Below, piece after piece: positions 3,279 through 44,989 of a DNA stretch of 64,000 nt. A model generated the notes under the pieces. It was not told the origin of the DNA and made no database searches. It saw nothing but the letters and a program-made list of their open reading frames with translations. The position numbers were made by a program, and so were the translations under genes. The stretch's first letter is position 1. Every line of letters starts with the position of its first letter. Location of the stretch: the sequence record PQ400055.1; one strand, 5' to 3'. This DNA comes from a phage.

Positions 3279-6887
<3,609 letters not shown>

Positions 6888-6918
6888 CGATAATGCATAA
6901 AAAGATGAGGAAATTCTA

Positions 6919-8922
6919 ATGACTCTATTATCACCGGGTTTCGAAACGAAAGAAACTACTCTCTCCACTACCATTGTGCAATCTGCGACTGGTCGCGCTG
7001 CACTGGTAGGTAAATTCCAATGGGGTCCAGCTTTCCAGATTATTCAAGTAACTAATGAAGTTGAATTAGTTAATAAATTTGGTCAGCCGGATAATAACAC
7101 CGCAGACTATTTCATGAGCGGGGCTAACTTCCTCCAGTATGGCAATGACCTGCGTGTTGTTCGTGTATTGAATAAAGAAAAAGCGAAAAACGCAACTGCC
7201 CTAGCTGGTAACATCGAGTTTGAAATCACAAACGAAGGTTCAAACTATGAAGTAGGCGATACCATCAAGATTAAACATAACCGTCAAGATATTGAAACGG
7301 CTGGTAAAGTAACTAAAGTTGATGGTGATGGTAAAGTTAAGGGCGTATTTATCCCAACTGGTAAAATTATCGCTCACGCTAAAGCAATCGGTGTATATCC
7401 AGAACTTGATGGCGGTTGGACGGCAGAGTTCACTTCTTCGTCAGGTAACGGTAGTGCGGCGCTGTCAGTAACTAAAATTGTTACTGATTCCGGTCTTCTG
7501 TTAACGGATCTGGAAACTTCCCGCGCCAATATCACAAATCAGACTTTCTTGACTAAACTCCAGAAGTATGATATGCCAGCGGTAAGCGCGATCTATGCTG
7601 GTGAGATTGGCAACTCGCTGGAAGTTGAAATTCTGGCACGTAGCGCGTTCAGTGGCGCGGTAGCACCTGAATTAACTATATATCCGTTCGGCGGAACTCG
7701 TGCCGCAGCACGCAACCTGATTCCATATGCACCGCAGAATGATAATCAATATGCATTTATTGTTCGTCGCGATGGTGTTGTGGTAGAATCCTATGTACTG
7801 TCTACTCTGAAAGGGGATAAAGACGTATACGGCAATTCTATCTACATGGACGACTTCTTTGCTCGTGGTTCTAGCCAGTACATCTATGCAACCGCTCAAG
7901 GGTGGGTAGATGGTTTCAGTGGTATTATCTCTCTTGCTGGTGGTGTTTCTGCTAACGAAGCAACGACTGCTGGTGTTGGTGCTGATCCGTTCATCGGTGC
8001 GATGATGCAAGGTTGGGATCTGTTTGCTGAACGAGAATCTATTCACGTAAACCTGTTGATCGCTGGTGCATGTGCTGGCGAAGGCGATGCGTTCTCTACC
8101 GTACAGAAACATGCTGTTTCCATCGGCGATGAGCGTCAGGATTGCTTAGTAATGGTTTCTCCGCCGCGTAGCACTGTTGTTAATATTCCGGTGACTACCG
8201 CAATTGATAACCTGATTGCATGGCGCGAAGGTTCAGGAAACTATAATGAAAACAACATGAACATTAATACCACTTACGCGGTTATTGATGGTAACTACAA
8301 ATATCAGTATGACAAATACAACGACGTAAACCGTTGGGTTCCGTTGGCTGCTGATATTGCTGGTTTGTGCGCTCGCACTGATGCTGTATCCCAGCCGTGG
8401 ATGAGTCCGGCAGGTTATAACCGTGGACAGATCATGAACGTGGTTAAACTGGCAATTGAGCCTCGCAAGGCGCACCGCGATCGTCTGTATCAGGCCGCAA
8501 TTAACCCGGTAATCGGTGCTGGTGGTGAAGGGTTTATCCTGATGGGTGATAAAACCGCTACGACTGTTCCTAGCCCGTTTGACCGCATTAACGTTCGTCG
8601 TCTGTTTAACATGCTGAAAAAGAATATCGGCGATTCAAGCAAATACAAACTGTTTGAAAACAATGATAACTTTACTCGCGCTTCCTTCCGTATGGAGGTT
8701 TCGCAATATCTCAGCACGATTCGCTCTCTGGGTGGCATTTATGACTTCCGAGTACAATGCGACACCACGAATAACACGCCGGATGTAATTGATCGTAACG
8801 AATTTGTTGCTAGTATGTTCATCAAACCAGCAAAATCGATCAACTATATCATGCTCAATTTCACTGCTGTTGCAACTGGTTCTGATTTTGACGAAATTAT
8901 CGGTCCAGCTAACCAGGCATAA
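6919..8922 (+). CDS. 18: tail sheath protein gp18
   Basis: 667 aa (T4 gp18 about 659 aa); position between terL and tail tube. Confidence 0.9.
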   Translation: MTLLSPGFETKETTLSTTIVQSATGRAALVGKFQWGPAFQIIQVTNEVELVNKFGQPDNNTADYFMSGANFLQYGNDLRVVRVLNKEKAKNATALAGNIEFEITNEGSNYEVGDTIKIKHNRQDIETAGKVTKVDGDGKVKGVFIPTGKIIAHAKAIGVYPELDGGWTAEFTSSSGNGSAALSVTKIVTDSGLLLTDLETSRANITNQTFLTKLQKYDMPAVSAIYAGEIGNSLEVEILARSAFSGAVAPELTIYPFGGTRAAARNLIPYAPQNDNQYAFIVRRDGVVVESYVLSTLKGDKDVYGNSIYMDDFFARGSSQYIYATAQGWVDGFSGIISLAGGVSANEATTAGVGADPFIGAMMQGWDLFAERESIHVNLLIAGACAGEGDAFSTVQKHAVSIGDERQDCLVMVSPPRSTVVNIPVTTAIDNLIAWREGSGNYNENNMNINTTYAVIDGNYKYQYDKYNDVNRWVPLAADIAGLCARTDAVSQPWMSPAGYNRGQIMNVVKLAIEPRKAHRDRLYQAAINPVIGAGGEGFILMGDKTATTVPSPFDRINVRRLFNMLKKNIGDSSKYKLFENNDNFTRASFRMEVSQYLSTIRSLGGIYDFRVQCDTTNNTPDVIDRNEFVASMFIKPAKSINYIMLNFTAVATGSDFDEIIGPANQA

Positions 8923-13362: not shown

Positions 13363-14949
13363 ATGAAAACTACCAAAGAACTGATGGAAAAATGGTCCCC
13401 GCTGCTGGAGAACGAAAAACTGCCGGAAATCGCAACTGCGTCTAAGCAGAAACTGGTTGCTAAAATTCTGGAATCTCAGGAAGCGGATTTTGCTGTAGAC
13501 CCGATCTATAAGGATGAAAAAGTTGTTGAAGCATTTGGTGGCTTTATCACCGAAGCAGAAGTTGCTGGCGACCACGGTTACGATGCATCCAAAATCGCCG
13601 CAGGTCAGACCACTGGTGCAATCACTAACGTAGGTCCGGCTGTTATCGGTATGGTTCGCCGTGCTATCCCTAACCTGATCGCATTTGATATTTGTGGTGT
13701 TCAGCCGATGAGCACTCCGACTAGCCAGATCTTTGCAATCCGTTCTGTATACGGTGGCGATCCGCTGAAATCCGGTGCTCGCGAAGCATTCCATCCGATG
13801 TATGCACCTGATGCGTTCCATAGCTCTCTTGCTGCTAAAGAGGCAACTGTAGGTTCACCAACTGGTACTGCATTCGCTAAACTAACTCTTTCCCAGGCTA
13901 TCGCTGCTGGTGATATCGTATATCACACCTTCGCAGAAACTGGTATTGCTTATCTGCAAAACGTAACTGGTGATTCTGTAACACCACAGAAAGTAGGTAG
14001 CGAATCCGAAGATGAAGTAGTAATGAAGCTGATTGAAGAAGGTAAATTGGCTGAAATCGCTTTCGGTATGGCTACTTCCATTGCCGAAATTCAGGAAGGC
14101 TTTAACGGTTCCAGCAATAACCCGTGGGCTGAAATGTCAATGCGTATTGACAAACAGGTTGTTGAAGCGAAATCTCGCCAACTGAAAGCCCGTTACTCTA
14201 TCGAAGTTGCGCAGGATCTGCGTGCTGTACACGGTATGGATGCTGACGCTGAACTGAATGCTATCCTGGCTAACGAAGTTCTGCTGGAAATCAACCGTGA
14301 AATCGTTGACGTGATCAACTTTACCGCTCAGGTTGGTAAGACTGGTATGACTCAGACCGTTGGTTCTAAAGCTGGTGTATTTGACCTGCAAGACCCGATC
14401 GATACTCGCGGTGCTCGTTGGGCTGGTGAATCCTTCAAATCTCTGATCTACCAGATCGACAAAGAAGCTGCTGAAATCGCTCGTCAGACTGGTCGCGGTG
14501 CTGGTAACTTTGTTATCGCTTCCCGTAACGTTGTAAACATTCTGGCTTCTGCTGATCAGGGTATCAGTCTTGCTATGCAGGGTGCTGCAAAAGGTCTGAA
14601 TACCGACACCACTAAAGCTGTTTTCGCTGGTGTTCTGGCTGGTAAGTACAAAGTGTTCATCGACCAGTATGCTCGTCAAGACTACTTCACCGTAGGTTAC
14701 AAAGGCGACAACGAAATGGATGCTGGTATCTACTATGCTCCGTATGTTGCTCTGACTCCGCTGCGTGCAACTGACCCGCAGTCTTTCCACCCGGTTCTGG
14801 GCTTCAAGACTCGCTATGGCATCGGTATTAACCCGTTTGCAGACAGCAAATCCCAGGCACCGTCCGCTCGCATCACCTCCGGTATGTTGAGCAAAGACAG
14901 CGTAGGTAAAAACGCATACTTCCGTCGTGTATGGGTTAAAGGTTGCTAA
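13363..14949 (+). CDS. 23: major capsid protein gp23
   Basis: 528 aa; N-terminal propeptide-like region and overall match to T4 gp23 from memory; codon usage typical of a highly expressed gene. Confidence 0.92.
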   Translation: MKTTKELMEKWSPLLENEKLPEIATASKQKLVAKILESQEADFAVDPIYKDEKVVEAFGGFITEAEVAGDHGYDASKIAAGQTTGAITNVGPAVIGMVRRAIPNLIAFDICGVQPMSTPTSQIFAIRSVYGGDPLKSGAREAFHPMYAPDAFHSSLAAKEATVGSPTGTAFAKLTLSQAIAAGDIVYHTFAETGIAYLQNVTGDSVTPQKVGSESEDEVVMKLIEEGKLAEIAFGMATSIAEIQEGFNGSSNNPWAEMSMRIDKQVVEAKSRQLKARYSIEVAQDLRAVHGMDADAELNAILANEVLLEINREIVDVINFTAQVGKTGMTQTVGSKAGVFDLQDPIDTRGARWAGESFKSLIYQIDKEAAEIARQTGRGAGNFVIASRNVVNILASADQGISLAMQGAAKGLNTDTTKAVFAGVLAGKYKVFIDQYARQDYFTVGYKGDNEMDAGIYYAPYVALTPLRATDPQSFHPVLGFKTRYGIGINPFADSKSQAPSARITSGMLSKDSVGKNAYFRRVWVKGC

Positions 14950-15351: not shown

Positions 15352-15504
15352 ATGAGTAAGAAAGAAAACAGCTATGTTATGACTCGTAAGGAATACAACG
15401 AATTGATGTTAGCATTAGCTTATGCAATTATTCGTTCTGATCATGCAATTAATCTGGTAAACAAAGTTAACCGTAGCGTTGATAATGTTTCTAGGAAGAA
15501 GTAA
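15352..15504 (+). CDS. small hypothetical protein (50 aa)
   Basis: ATG preceded by AGGAGG with 5-nt spacer; MSKKENSYVMTRKEYNELMLALAYAIIRSDHAINLVNKVNRSVDNVSRKK. Below six-frame track cutoff. Confidence 0.45.
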   Translation: MSKKENSYVMTRKEYNELMLALAYAIIRSDHAINLVNKVNRSVDNVSRKK

Positions 15505-15543
15505 GTTTATTTTTGGAATCCTTTGGATTCCTTTTTCTTTTTG

Positions 15544-15551
15544 TATAAATA
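15544..15551 (+). promoter_or_regulatory. late promoter motif TATAAATA upstream of gp24
   Basis: Exact TATAAATA 38 nt upstream of proposed gp24 ATG. Confidence 0.55.
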
Positions 15552-15588
15552 TGATATATCCATTAAGGCAAATACAGGATTCATAAAC

Positions 15589-16830
15589 ATGACTCATATT
15601 TTTACTGAACTGTTGCGGGAATCTACTTCCTCAGTAGCTAACCAGACAGCGCGACCGCAACTATTATCATTAACTCGCGCGGTAAACAACCTGATTTTCT
15701 CTGATCTGGTAGCAATCCAGCCAACGGATCAACCAGTATCTGCATTGTACGGCCTACGTTATCTTAATCGTGATGGTCAGATGACTTTCCGAACTGCTGC
15801 GACCTACGGTGGCGCGGCTGGTGATCGCACAGAGATTGAAGAGTTTTCAAAAGAAAAATCTTATGACGAAGGCGCACTATTCAAATCAGGCGATGTTGTA
15901 TACGAAGTTGTGACCGCTGGTACAGTCGGTGAAGATGCCGAAACTCCAGAAGCTGCAATCTTTAAAGGCGTAATGACAAACAAAATTCGTTTCTACAGCG
16001 ATTGTGCATCGGTAGAATACTTTGAAGATAAAAACACCGAAATTTCGTCTACCTCTATGCAGTTTGATAAATGGCAGGTTAATGTAGGTTCTCGTAAACT
16101 GAAAACCTCATTCACGACCGAATTGATGCAGGATCTTGAGGCAAGCCAAATCAACTCTGAAAACTCTGTAATTGATCTTCTGGCTACTGTTGCTTCCGAA
16201 GAGATCAACAAAGATATTATTCAGAAGTTGATCACTGTATCATCTCGCTATAAAATTAAAGGGATCACCCCTGATGGCGTACTTTCTCTCGTTAGCGTTC
16301 AGGATGCACCAACACAAGCGCGTGAACTTTACCGCTACGCGTGCGAAATGAGCAATCAAATGTTGCGTACTTCCTCCTTTGCTGGTACATACGTTTTGGC
16401 TTCTTCTCGCGTGGTTGGCCTCCTGCAATCTACCGGGTGGATGGAAGAAACCGACAATGCTCTAAGCGAAGGTCGTCTACGTTGCGGTCTGGAAGTGTAC
16501 GCAGACACGACAACACCTTTCGATTATATGCTCGTTGGTTGTAAGCACATGATCGGTGATATGGAGAGTGTAGGTTCTCTGTTCTACTCCCCATATACAG
16601 AAGCCGACGGCGCTGGAGCGTATAAGAGCGTAATTGACCCTAATAGCTTCCAGCATCATGTAGCTATTATGAATCGTTATTCACTATCTGTCAACCCATA
16701 CACATCAAAAGTTGATCAGGAAGAACACCAGGTCATCAAGGGTGACGATTGGGGTAAAATGGCTGGACGTTCAGAAATGTCCTACATTTTAGGAATCGAA
16801 CTGCCACCGCTTGAGATTGACAACGCTTAA
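15589..16830 (+). CDS. 24: capsid vertex protein gp24
   Basis: Start placed at MTHIFTELLRES (T4 gp24 begins MAKINELLRES.., from memory); gp23-like fold motifs; six-frame ORF 15523..16830 is N-extended. Confidence 0.88.
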   Translation: MTHIFTELLRESTSSVANQTARPQLLSLTRAVNNLIFSDLVAIQPTDQPVSALYGLRYLNRDGQMTFRTAATYGGAAGDRTEIEEFSKEKSYDEGALFKSGDVVYEVVTAGTVGEDAETPEAAIFKGVMTNKIRFYSDCASVEYFEDKNTEISSTSMQFDKWQVNVGSRKLKTSFTTELMQDLEASQINSENSVIDLLATVASEEINKDIIQKLITVSSRYKIKGITPDGVLSLVSVQDAPTQARELYRYACEMSNQMLRTSSFAGTYVLASSRVVGLLQSTGWMEETDNALSEGRLRCGLEVYADTTTPFDYMLVGCKHMIGDMESVGSLFYSPYTEADGAGAYKSVIDPNSFQHHVAIMNRYSLSVNPYTSKVDQEEHQVIKGDDWGKMAGRSEMSYILGIELPPLEIDNA

Positions 16831-17418
16831 CTAAATATCTAACCAAGACAAGTCAGATCCGCCCAAGATTTTTTCGACGGCGGATCTATTTTCTTGATGA
16901 TATAAGTTAAAACATGGTATCCCATGTCTACGGGCAACATAAACAGCAATTCTAGTTCCTCCAGAAACGATTCCATTAACTTCTTTCGCCCAGAATATCA
17001 CACAATCTACAGGATCATCAAGTGTCTCACCTAAGACTTGAGCAACATTTCTCGAAAACAGATTTTGCATGTATAACGGTATAGAACGAGGATTATCATA
17101 AACGTGTTCTAATTCATCCATCGCCAGATTTTTTTGTTCTAAGGTTTGCCATGCAATCACATCATGACCGTTATGCTTGTGGTCATAAAACTTCCAATTT
17201 GGAATGAAAATTTTTCTATAATCTGGATCGTAATACTTCATGAAAGCATTGTCCATACCGTAAGCCCCTCCAGAATGCGCTACAACGCGATTTTCTGACA
17301 ATACCCTCCCAATGGTACTAGCCATTATCAAAATGTCGCTAGGCGCTTTTCTAGAGCCGATTAAAGCACATCTACGAAGTGGTTTTACTCCAAATAGATC
17401 TTGTAACTGGTCAAACAT
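16831..17418 (-). CDS. SLOG-fold protein, DprA/Smf-like (or LOG-like) Rossmann domain
   Basis: Motifs IGSRKAP and VVAHSGGAYGMDNAF resemble the DprA core (GTRKPS..VVSGLARGIDAAAH). 195 aa. Confidence 0.5.
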   Translation of the reverse strand: MFDQLQDLFGVKPLRRCALIGSRKAPSDILIMASTIGRVLSENRVVAHSGGAYGMDNAFMKYYDPDYRKIFIPNWKFYDHKHNGHDVIAWQTLEQKNLAMDELEHVYDNPRSIPLYMQNLFSRNVAQVLGETLDDPVDCVIFWAKEVNGIVSGGTRIAVYVARRHGIPCFNLYHQENRSAVEKILGGSDLSWLDI

Positions 17419-17559
17419 AATATTTCCTCCATAGAAAGCAATATCATACTACAAGTTAATAACAAATACAAGTATCCGCGTAGCGGAAGCGAGCACAGCG
17501 AGCATTAAAAACACTTCCAGTAATTGATTAATAAATGTTCGAAACAAATTTTTATTATT

Positions 17560-17745
17560 CTATAAGATAAGTCTTCGTTTTGATCATAATTTAAACATAC
17601 ATGTAAAACTACACAAAAGGATATCGCTTCGCGAACTCCTACGGAGTATAACATTTGTGTTACAATATGTAGTGATTAATAATTAACCAAAGATACATTT
17701 TCTATGTTCTAAAGATCTTTCTTCGTTTTGATCATAATTTAATCA
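17560..17745. repeat. two copies of a direct repeat (CTTCGTTTTGATCATAATTTAA) about 150 bp apart in a 410-bp noncoding region
   Basis: Identical 21-mers at about 17573 and about 17722, each followed by ..CATGTAAA..; no ORF. Confidence 0.5.
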
Positions 17746-17796
17746 AACAGTATTAATATTGTGCACATGTAAACTAAAATTATGTTAATAACAGAT

Positions 17797-17823
17797 ACAA
17801 AAAAGCCGCCCAGAAGGACGGCT
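17797..17823 (-). terminator. rho-independent terminator (minus strand)
   Basis: AGCCGCC..GGACGGCT hairpin with T-run on minus strand, just past the 3' end of gene 17832..18269. Confidence 0.6.
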
Positions 17824-17831
17824 AATGTTAA

Positions 17832-18269
17832 TTATTTGTTGATAACGATCTGATTTCGGCGAATGGTAACATTACTCTTAGAGATGATCAGATCATCCGG
17901 CACTACGTTAGTTTTGTATGGTTGGAATCGAACAAGCATCTGATTGCGTTTAGACCCTTCCTTAATCTTGATTTCCATCTGGATATTGTTGCCTACGTGA
18001 GCAACCGCAATTTCACCTTTATTCTCATAGACCCACTTGCTGGTAACGTCTCCAGCAAAAGCCTTAATAACTTGCAATGCTTCGTCGTATGCGGTAGAGC
18101 TGTGAACTTTCAGAAGGCCAGCCGTAGCAAGACGGGAGCAGGCGATCGCCGGAGATTGCCAAACATCAACATTAATTTGCTCAATCAGAGTAACACCGCC
18201 CTGATCAACTGCTTTGAATGCTTCGAACATTGCCTTTTTCATTGCTACGTGGTTTTTACGGAATTTCAT
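17832..18269 (-). CDS. hypothetical protein
   Basis: 145 aa ORF; no recognisable motif. Confidence 0.5.
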   Translation of the reverse strand: MKFRKNHVAMKKAMFEAFKAVDQGGVTLIEQINVDVWQSPAIACSRLATAGLLKVHSSTAYDEALQVIKAFAGDVTSKWVYENKGEIAVAHVGNNIQMEIKIKEGSKRNQMLVRFQPYKTNVVPDDLIISKSNVTIRRNQIVINK

Positions 18270-42859: not shown

Positions 42860-44354
42860 CGAATACCTCTTTTACTGTATTTGCAGTGGTCTTGTCGTAG
42901 CGAATACGTTTGATGATTGGGAGAAATAAAGAGAACTCCGGTTCATCTTCTTTACGTGATTTGCTGCGGATATACCCGTTGCATGTCATCTCAATAACTT
43001 TTCCAATCAGGTTATGACGGTCAGCCCATAACATTTCTCGGTCGAGTTCATTTCGACGATCGAACGGAATTACACGTTCAGTACCATCATCACCTTTTTC
43101 GGTTGTAGTGTCGGTTAATCCCGATCCGGTGTTAGTCATCATTCGTCCGCACGAACTACGGACAGTAAAACCGCCTACCTTATTGGGGTCTTTACTATGC
43201 GGATATACATCAACAATTTCCGCGTCGAAGTCAATCACTTCTTTAAATTTAACCTGATCTTTACTACGGCGATCTTCAAATACACCATGTAAATTTTTAA
43301 GGATAATACCTTCTAAGCCCATGTTGACATAACGATGATATACTTCGCGAGCTTCATCGATATTGTTAACTACAGTGTTTTCGATGATCTGAACACGAGG
43401 ATCGTTAAGTTCTTCAACAATCTGTTTTAGTTCTTCGAATCGATCTTTATATTGCTTCGTTGCTTTCTCGTTTCCGTAATACACATCACGGTCGATAACA
43501 TCCCAGACAGTGTAAACAATACATTGGGCTTCTTCTTTTGGAATAGTTCCTTTAAGTGATTTGTTGAGGATACCATTTCCGGTCTGACGATCTGCAACAA
43601 CGGATTCTTTCACTGCTTCCGCTACTGGCGTTAATGGCATTTCCTCTTCTTCAAATATCCATGACAGAGTACCATCATAAACGCTTTCAACGAAGTTCTG
43701 CGCTGGTGTTTGCGAAAGGGTAGGCATATATACCAATTCACCATCTAGAACAATTCCACGGCCTCGTAGACGCTCTAAAACCGCAAACAAATCATCAAGT
43801 CCTTGATAGGTATTACCTGAGCGGGTATAGATTGCTAATGTTTCCCCGTCAATATCAGCCATACCACGAGCGCCATCGCTTTTAAGTTGTGCATACGCCG
43901 GATACTTGATATTAGCAATAGTCTTATCAGAACATGACGATGCAAGGTGACACGGTTGCTGGGGGATCAGTTTCTTCCATACCTTGTTTGCAGTGGTAGC
44001 GGAACAACCACATTCCAGATCACGATTCAGGACCATCATTGCAACTTTAGCATCATCTTCTGACAAGCAAGTCAGAGTATCGGTAACTAGCTGTAATGCT
44101 GCGTTACCAGTTACTTGACGCGTGGCAAGTTTATTTTTAAAGACCTGTAATGCACCGGATAAAGACAATACAGACGAATAGCGAGATGGTTCATCGTATT
44201 TCTTTACGCCAAACGTAACCTGTTTGCAATATGCCAGATAAAAGCATTCTTTCAGTGTTTCATTGCTTGCAGATTCTTTCAGGATCTTTTCTTTCAGCGA
44301 TGTTTTGTCGGTCGCTGCAAGCTGGTTAATGATATTAAGAATTGACATTTTCAC
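42852..44354 (-). CDS. 30: ATP-dependent DNA ligase gp30
   Basis: 500 aa; FPAYAQLKSDGAR (KxDG adenylation motif), DGELVY, EGIILKN, and C-terminal motifs match T4 DNA ligase from memory. Confidence 0.9.
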   Translation of the reverse strand: MKMSILNIINQLAATDKTSLKEKILKESASNETLKECFYLAYCKQVTFGVKKYDEPSRYSSVLSLSGALQVFKNKLATRQVTGNAALQLVTDTLTCLSEDDAKVAMMVLNRDLECGCSATTANKVWKKLIPQQPCHLASSCSDKTIANIKYPAYAQLKSDGARGMADIDGETLAIYTRSGNTYQGLDDLFAVLERLRGRGIVLDGELVYMPTLSQTPAQNFVESVYDGTLSWIFEEEEMPLTPVAEAVKESVVADRQTGNGILNKSLKGTIPKEEAQCIVYTVWDVIDRDVYYGNEKATKQYKDRFEELKQIVEELNDPRVQIIENTVVNNIDEAREVYHRYVNMGLEGIILKNLHGVFEDRRSKDQVKFKEVIDFDAEIVDVYPHSKDPNKVGGFTVRSSCGRMMTNTGSGLTDTTTEKGDDGTERVIPFDRRNELDREMLWADRHNLIGKVIEMTCNGYIRSKSRKEDEPEFSLFLPIIKRIRYDKTTANTVKEVFDV

Positions 44355-44814
44355 CTCGTTTTGTTAAACGTTCACGAATATCATTGAGGATACTACAAAA
44401 TTCCGATTCAGTCAATATAGTCTTTAACGGATCAGTTCCACCTATGCTATGACGTAATTTCTTATTTCCGGTAGAGAGTAATGCTTTACAAAATTCTGGG
44501 TTATTCCGTGCCATCGTAACAAATGCCAGATGTACCAGTCTGTAATAATGCTCACTCATTCGATGAATCGGGCGACCCTGAAAATATAACATGTGATTCT
44601 CAATCTTTTCAGTTCTTCCGGTTCTTTTTGCTTTGCCACCGTGCATCAAAAAGATTTCTCTTTGTCTCTGAGGGTTCTTAAATCTTAGCCCCTGTAAAAA
44701 TCCTTCTGTGCTGTTAATATCGCAACCAAATAGACGGAATGGTCTTTTATTGAAATTACTCAATTCACCCGATGGATAAGGTCCACCCGCATAGATATCA
44801 ATTTCAGAAGTCAT
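44335..44814 (-). CDS. NADAR/YbiA-like (DUF1768) domain protein
   Basis: LSNFNKRPF..TEGFLQGLRF parallels E. coli YbiA FSNFAAWP..SEHYFQAQKF (from memory). 159 aa. Confidence 0.5.
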   Translation of the reverse strand: MTSEIDIYAGGPYPSGELSNFNKRPFRLFGCDINSTEGFLQGLRFKNPQRQREIFLMHGGKAKRTGRTEKIENHMLYFQGRPIHRMSEHYYRLVHLAFVTMARNNPEFCKALLSTGNKKLRHSIGGTDPLKTILTESEFCSILNDIRERLTKRGENVNS

Positions 44815-44989
44815 TGAAACTAATCTCGCTAATCAGAGAGAACGGATCATAATCGTCATTAGGAATATCGATAGTAATCGAATGAGGGTTTACCCATACA
44901 CCAAACTGGTCTTCTTCGGTGAATACTTCGGTATGGATTTCGTGGATGTTTACATTCATAGTTTTCATAATAAATTCCTTAATAATCAA
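44804..44989 (-). CDS. small hypothetical protein
   Basis: 61 aa ORF overlapping next gene start. Confidence 0.4.
   Translation of the reverse strand: MIIKEFIMKTMNVNIHEIHTEVFTEEDQFGVWVNPHSITIDIPNDDYDPFSLISEISFNDF

Follow-up and report, generated by a model that had tools for sequence, protein, structure and literature searches.

A DprA-like single-domain SLOG protein beside the capsid genes of a Krischvirus phage: family, genomic context and possible ligands

The gene at positions 16831–17418 of a 64-kb stretch of phage DNA (64,000 nucleotides of record PQ400055.1, hereafter the window) encodes a protein that is, judged from its predicted structure, a DprA-like single-domain Rossmannoid of the SLOG (Smf/DprA-LOG) superfamily. 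Its family, PHROG 768, is carried by phages and is a sister of the DprA Rossmann domain rather than DprA proper, because the curated thresholds for DprA are missed. Our best guess for its role is an early accessory protein for single-stranded DNA (ssDNA), or for a nucleotide, in damage tolerance or counter-defence.

RefSeq and PHROGs already contain the gene under a DprA-like name, and for the 64-kb window itself our work re-derives existing annotation. What we add is the sub-threshold status of the protein relative to true DprA, an audit of its motifs, the linkage to rnlB in other T4-like genera, the spectrum of fusions and the separation from the family of the anti-Avs3 protein ORF83.

The gene and its genomic context

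In the ORF listing the gene lies on the minus strand (16831–17418, stop codon included), starts with ATG and encodes 195 amino acids. Direct reading of the sequence reveals a Shine-Dalgarno element, GGAGG, on the same strand at 17426–17430, 7 nt 5' of the ATG (17418–17416). The source phage is a Krischvirus, a T4-like phage of the RB49/JSE type. A 2.8-kb region is 98.5–99.5% identical to the 25 records listed, of 59 that match. The protein is 100% identical to its counterpart in Krischvirus RB49, and JSE carries the same gene at the same locus (YP_002922241.1, PHROG 768, RefSeq name 'DprA-like') with no structural difference. The ORF is a real gene, and nothing else in the window matches the family HMM.

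The first-pass annotation had placed the gene directly after the capsid gene block and antisense to the late module, and this is indeed where it sits. Both gp23 (13363–14949 in the ORF listing) and the gene 24 ORF (15523–16830) are on the plus strand. The SLOG gene is on the opposite strand, convergent with gp24, and abuts the end of gp24 at 16830 with zero gap. The gene 24 ORF is a mechanical one with a TTG start at 15523. In related records gene 24 encodes 413 aa and, going by the JSE coordinates, its start would fall 66 nt further in, at about 15589 of the window. Between genes 23 and 24 there are two small conserved ORFs (e.g., 15352–15504, PHROG 16600); T4 has segD there. Upstream of the SLOG gene is a 145-aa ORF (ORF145; 17832–18269, minus strand; PHROG 15652, a family without an assigned function). 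With gp24 and ORF145 as neighbours, the SLOG gene has no adjoining toxin gene (PRTase or RecQ-like).

T4 had also been said to carry rnlB at the equivalent position, and rightly so. In T4, gene 24 is directly followed by rnlB, 24.2, 24.3, hoc and inh on the opposite strand, and the syntenic region contains no SLOG gene. The SLOG gene of Karamvirus Pet-CM3-4 and of Slopekvirus KpCCP1 is located directly downstream of rnlB, its start overlapping the rnlB stop; in Karamvirus this places it between rnlB and gene 24. In Cronobacter phage Pet-CM3-4 (NC_055726), where the SLOG gene (4010–4555) is unannotated in RefSeq, the overlap reads TAATG, which suggests that Rnl2 and the SLOG protein may be translationally coupled in this phage. 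Nine of 54 dereplicated IMG/VR loci have capsid-gene (T4-like) neighbours. Rnl2 is encoded immediately upstream of the SLOG gene in six of the 54, and three genes off in one more. Krischvirus is the exception: the spacer and ORF145, not rnlB, are found upstream of the SLOG gene.

ORF145 occupies the stretch where Karamvirus and Slopekvirus have rnlB, and we met it only in Krischvirus-type sequences. A degraded rnlB in the spacer can be rejected, as two Rnl2 proteins used as tblastn queries gave no hit in the 64-kb window (the best E value, 0.29, was elsewhere). In Klebsiella phage KpCCP1 the rnlB-SLOG pair is followed, 1.3 kb downstream on the same strand, by a nicotinamide phosphoribosyltransferase gene (5886–7319).

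A sister family of the DprA Rossmann domain

The first-pass annotation had read a DprA signature in IGSRKAP and VVAHSGGAYGMDNAF, and had proposed a DprA/Smf-like SLOG fold in a minimal 195-aa domain without the flanking domains of DprA. Our searches bear out all of these points. The translation includes ALIGSRKAP and VVAHSGGAYGMDNAF. PHROG 768, named 'DprA-like DNA recombination-mediator protein', covers residues 15–187 on profile positions 4–181 of 191 (E=1.2e-60). Pfam DprA (PF02481) matches residues 15–60 only (E=8e-5), with a sub-threshold 22.3 bits against a cut-off of 29.6, and TIGR00732 is also sub-threshold for this protein, at 14.4 bits against 191.15. Among 32 family members, 28 match Pfam DprA and none matches Pfam LOG (PF03641), YpsA (PF06908; E<=0.01) or YAcAr (PF10686). 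A family profile matches the DprA chains in the PDB with E=3e-4 when built from 32 sequences and E=9e-6 when built from 129. The E-values of PHROG 768, Pfam DprA and the PDB-chain profile mean that the motif similarity is not due to chance.

The structural model tells the same story. AlphaFold2, with an alignment of 32 homologues, predicts a single compact domain with a pLDDT of 93.9 and a pTM of 0.89; neither the ORF nor the model contains an N-terminal SAM domain or a C-terminal winged-helix/DML1 domain. The best Foldseek match in the PDB is the Rossmann domain of Helicobacter pylori DprA (HpDprA; 5mll/4ljk, E ~2e-5, TM ~0.5, 194–221 aligned columns). Lower-ranked matches belong exclusively to the SLOG superfamily: DprA of R. 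palustris and S. pneumoniae, Moco carrier protein (MCP), LOG, ShosA and the SLOG domain of ThsA. No unrelated fold appears, and the best 50 matches include no YpsA structure.

Hence DprA/Smf (PF02481; HpDprA 4LJK/4LJR/5MLL, SpDprA 3UQZ) is the closest match in both structure and profile. The two share the order of G-S-R after strand 1, SGGAxGxD, a proline after strand 3, the x-x-R-N helix and a G-G-T or S-G-S loop preceding the last helix-strand. They differ in that the SLOG protein is about 15 residues longer between the RN motif and the G-G-T loop (motif spacing, by eye), falls below the DprA thresholds, does not possess the SAM and winged-helix domains, has invariant residues of its own (Q127 and N171), is phage-borne and has no known link to RecA.

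LOG and the ThsA SLOG domain have the same superfamily fold (Foldseek E 1e-3 to 1e-2). In contrast to these, the phage protein has an alanine in place of the catalytic glutamate, no SIR2 or other effector fusion and no match to Pfam LOG.

The antitoxins ShosA and PsyrA share the DprA-type Rossmann domain (ShosA 8ZVA, Foldseek E=1.4e-3), with a weak HMM match over GSR...SGGAxGxD. They are cellular proteins of 300–400 aa with a SAM domain and an adjacent toxin, whereas the SLOG protein is a lone phage domain without a toxin neighbour. The PADLOC models for PsyrA and ShosA match 32 and 25 of 32 close members, respectively. These matches are weak (E 1e-4 to 1e-7), cover the shared N-terminal ~45 residues only and are no better than the generic DprA match. 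For the SLOG protein itself, the ShosA and PsyrA models give E values of 4e-5 and 3.5e-4, again over ~45 N-terminal residues and not full-length.

Conserved residues of the pocket

An exhaustive HMM search yielded 4,319 cluster representatives (E<=1e-3), most of which are stand-alone proteins of 160–210 aa. We assessed conservation in an alignment of 129 diverse representatives with a mean column identity of 22%. Invariant or nearly invariant are G21, S22, R23, P26, S49, G50, A52, G54, D56, P73, R123, N124, Q127, G130, G153, G154, T155, A158, A162 and N171. The GSR and SGGAxGxD motifs thus have counterparts throughout the 129 relatives; G21 and R123 are found in all 129, R23 in 127 and N124 in 124.

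Wang et al. (2014) described G-S/T/A-R and F/L/Y-x-x-R-N/D as the ssDNA-binding signatures of DprA; the substitutions R52E and R143E reduce ssDNA affinity about 315-fold and 173-fold (PMC3950713). Both signatures are present here. The first is G21-S22-R23, which aligns to IGTRR of HpDprA, and the second is L120-F121-S122-R123-N124, inside a predicted helix (115–129). Judged from motif order and the overall fold match, and not from a residue-level alignment, R123 and N124 would correspond to R143 and N144 of HpDprA (motif F140-N144). Profile alignments to DprA (HMM, hhalign) span the N-terminal third only; against E. coli Smf, hhalign aligned residues 16–78 alone, and MAFFT --add against DprA misaligned the RN motif.

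The invariant residues G21-S22-R23, S49-G50-G-A52-x-G54-x-D56, R123-N124-x-x-Q127, G153-G154-T155 and N171 appear to occupy the positions of the DprA nucleotide-pocket motifs. Two of them, Q127 and N171, are specific to the family, with nothing equivalent in DprA in a comparison by eye with E. coli Smf. No conserved basic residue in the PHROG 768 alignment is equivalent to K137 of HpDprA. The LOG motif PGGxGTxxE is replaced by SGGTRIA, with Ala158 (123/129) at the position of the catalytic glutamate.

The spacer upstream of the gene

A 410-bp noncoding region with direct repeats had been described as following the gene. The repeats are there and the region is noncoding, but it measures 413 bp (17419–17831) and, read along the coding strand, is located 5' of the gene (upstream) and not after it.

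At its far end the scanner lists a strong intrinsic terminator on the minus strand (17804–17823; an 8-bp stem, then TTTTTT), which ends the ORF145 unit and is also annotated in phage TB34. Because this terminator follows ORF145, the SLOG gene would need a promoter of its own, and going by the sequence this is probably an early one. A putative sigma-70-like promoter, TTGTAT-17 nt-TATGAT, is visible by eye on the minus strand at 17443–17471, below the threshold of the consensus scanner. The promoter-like block is kept as TTGTTT...TATGAT in an 87%-identical relative (L009). A G+C-rich hairpin listed by the scanner (TCCGC-TAC-GCGGA, 17475–17487, minus strand; weak, terminator-like) reads TCGGC-GTA-GCCGA in the same relative, so that the stem is kept through two-sided (compensatory) changes.

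The direct repeat consists of two 38-nt copies (17564–17601 and 17712–17749) that are 87% identical and 148 nt apart. Each contains the exact 23-nt core TTAAATTATGATCAAAACGAAGA (minus strand), at 17572–17594 and 17720–17742. The core occurs at these two sites only within the 64-kb window, and zero occurrences are expected in shuffles. The 23-nt boxes may be tandem promoters or protein-binding sites.

Two further candidates in the spacer were rejected. A structured RNA finds no support: the best Rfam match is MicX with 20.6 bits against a cut-off of 75, and the fold z-score of -1.7 is not unusual. A 49-aa ORF (17505–17654, minus strand) has no Shine-Dalgarno sequence and is unannotated in JSE and TB34, and we take it as noncoding. 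The spacer also contains a GCGAAGC mini-hairpin motif at 17632–17626.

Distribution, fusions and neighbours of the family

PHROG 768 occurs in 1,355 of 50,697 phage records (~2.7%) and in 23 of 72,556 plasmids. Carriers include T4-like, PB1-like, N4-like, phi92-like and T5-like phages. A narrow pattern search of bacterial genomes returned three loci, mostly MAGs.

Longer relatives reveal what the domain is fused to. NADAR was found five times (some of these proteins also match the T4 gp30.3 model) and DUF4326 twice, with single cases of RecJ (DHH-DHHA1-OB) and of an AlkB-like 2OG oxygenase. Two Macro fusions are on sphingomonad plasmids. Two giant metagenomic proteins of ~1,480 aa (P0040 and P0042) combine the PHROG 768 SLOG domain with YAcAr, LDcluster4 and NADAR.

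The phage studied here encodes NADAR separately: a 165-aa homologue of T4 gp30.3/AdfN is located at 44338–44832 on the minus strand (Pfam Phage_30_3 PF08010, E=7e-38). In T4, AdfN (gp30.3) has been proven to act against DarTG1 (PMC11825919). NADAR is described as reversing guanine-base ADP-ribosylation, and the DarG-type Macro domain as likewise reversing base ADP-ribosylation on DNA.

Outside the T4-like phages the neighbours vary but are often genes of early DNA metabolism, and they include a helicase, an ATP-dependent DNA ligase, a dCMP deaminase and a GapR-like DNA binder. An obligate operon partner can be rejected for these phages, since the four neighbours on either side recur only patchily across the 54 dereplicated IMG/VR loci (GapR-like 6, SF1 helicase 4, PTH2-like 4, ClpP 3). 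Linkage to uvsX, uvsY or recA was not seen in any of these 54 viral loci. One plasmid homologue lies ~5.7 kb from a plasmid-borne recA.

The anti-Avs3 protein ORF83 belongs to a sibling family

Among phage 'Smf/DprA' proteins, ORF83 of phage DruSM1 alone is known to have a knockout phenotype. Its deletion, like that of the DNA ligase ORF55, cuts infectivity on Avs type III strains (DruSM1 preprint). AlphaFold 3 predicts AMP binding for ORF83, an AlphaFold interaction with RecA is of low likelihood, and the residues of the RecA and dimer interfaces are missing.

The matching numbering of R89, N90, T112 and D114 indicates that ORF83 corresponds to gp80 of Escherichia phage Seurat (46156–46545, 130 aa). 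Because gp80 is a YAcAr (PF10686) SLOG protein, ORF83 is, by this numbering, a member of the YAcAr family. We rejected membership of PHROG 768: the family HMM finds nothing in Seurat, and hhalign against gp80 gives a probability of 4%.

ORF83 and gp80 are nevertheless stand-alone phage SLOG proteins whose motifs follow the plan of PHROG 768 (GGR; GDADGVD; RN; GG-x-GT). Relatives fused to DUF4326 exist in either family, and both domain types occur in P0040 and P0042. With 130 aa and fold searches that place it nearer to LOG than to DprA, ORF83 represents a sibling family of PHROG 768.

What the pocket may bind

The best explanation, to which we lean tentatively and by analogy, is that the SLOG pocket grips a nucleotide unit of ssDNA, as DprA and ShosA do. 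The gene, which faces the late capsid genes from the other strand, would probably be expressed early, from its own promoter behind the terminator. Its product would be an accessory ssDNA-binding factor that helps the phage to cope with or mend DNA that is damaged or chemically modified, such as ssDNA cut by nucleases or ADP-ribosylated on its bases. Separately encoded enzymes would be its partners: here the NADAR protein, and in relatives Rnl2, DNA ligase or helicases. We do not picture it as a canonical competence-type RecA loader.

We favour ssDNA for the following reasons. First, the closest relatives in structure and profile bind ssDNA. Second, both ssDNA motifs of DprA are invariant or nearly so and the catalytic residue of LOG is missing. 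Third, the fusion partners act on single-stranded nucleic acid (RecJ, NADAR, AlkB-like, Macro); RecJ and AlkB are ssDNA-acting enzymes. Fourth, the neighbours are DNA-metabolism genes, and the related antitoxin ShosA binds ssDNA. The layout of the gene, with its upstream terminator, its kept promoter-like block and its strong Shine-Dalgarno sequence, also supports this reading, including early expression.

Some observations count against ssDNA. The motifs alone cannot distinguish ssDNA from a small ligand, because LOG and the ThsA SLOG domain bind free nucleotides at the same place. A tight polar pocket (R23, D56, R123, N124, Q127, T155, N171) is at least as typical of an enzyme or a specific small-molecule sensor. 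There is no equivalent of K137, and the net charge of the protein is -2 (family median +2). Furthermore, the phage already carries UvsY, UvsW and other recombination genes.

One could also argue that the ligand of the pocket is a soluble nucleotide (AMP, ADPr, a cADPR isomer or a PRPP-derived nucleotide), which the protein would either sequester or hydrolyse at an N-glycosidic bond. The effect would be to blunt NAD+- or nucleotide-based immunity, be it Thoeris-like, DarT-like or dependent on PRTase toxins. From fusions to Macro, NADAR and DUF4326, Iyer, Burroughs and Aravind (2022) predicted a role of viral SLOG domains in the processing or sensing of ADP-ribose derivatives (PMC9503650). We recover the same fusions for PHROG 768, together with the giant proteins that add YAcAr, LDcluster4 and NADAR, and to this extent their argument also weakens the case for ssDNA. 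The invariant polar pocket resembles an active site, the sibling protein ORF83 is needed against Avs type III and is predicted to bind AMP, and in Slopekvirus the nicotinamide phosphoribosyltransferase gene is close by. Against this, a near-invariant alanine replaces the catalytic glutamate of LOG, Pfam LOG, YpsA and YAcAr find no match, and the nearest structure and profile are those of DprA and not of LOG or ThsA. The fusions to RecJ and AlkB-like domains and the nearby helicase and ligase genes are better suited to nucleic acid, and no catalytic activity has been reported for any viral SLOG protein. In our view a soluble nucleotide is less likely than ssDNA, but it is a serious rival.

A broader proposal is that PHROG 768 is a widespread counter-defence family. 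Its pocket would recognise ssDNA that is ADP-ribosylated or damaged in some other way, or else an immune signal of nucleotide nature, and AdfN-type NADAR, Macro or DUF4326 enzymes, fused in some phages and separate here, would work alongside it against DarT-like, Avs-nuclease or ShosTA/PsyrTA defences. Taken as a whole this seems doubtful to us, though well worth considering. The fusions and the ORF83 phenotype against Avs type III do suggest a role in repairing or evading host-inflicted damage to DNA or nucleotides, and a known ligand could add a new anti-defence family.

It is unlikely that the protein is a canonical recombination mediator, which would dimerise on ssDNA and load host RecA or phage UvsX for recombination-dependent replication or repair. 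This function is implied by the PHROG and RefSeq name, by the DprA-type ssDNA motifs and by the plasmid homologue close to recA, and Iyer and Aravind (2021) saw in phage DprA/Smf a possible additional ssDNA binder for recombination (PMC7824862). However, the name is an inherited homology label, and the phage owns a mediator, UvsY, encoded beside uvsW. Linkage to uvsX, uvsY or recA is missing from the 54 viral loci, the SAM and C-terminal domains are missing from the protein, and Q127 and N171 are absent from DprA. The sibling ORF83, with its improbable RecA interaction and its missing RecA and dimer interface residues, points in the same direction. As PHROG 768 is labelled 'recombination mediator' throughout, identification of its ligand would either correct this very common annotation or bear it out.

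Finally, the protein could be an orphan mimic that replaces an unstable DprA-like antitoxin (ShosA or PsyrA) and so restrains toxin damage during infection, given the PADLOC matches, the orphan antitoxin-like enzymes of T4-like phages (e.g., AdfN against DarTG1) and the ability of ShosA, which binds ssDNA and RecA, to neutralise ShosT without contact, but those matches are confined to 45 N-terminal residues and the SAM domain on which ShosA stability depends is absent here, which makes this reading very improbable (PMC12961424 for ShosA).

The PHROG 768 SLOG domain is also found in polyvalent-type giant phage proteins, including L035 (2,505 aa) and L079 (3,056 aa), where it occurs with YAcAr, LDcluster4, NADAR, DUF4326 or DUF7831 modules.
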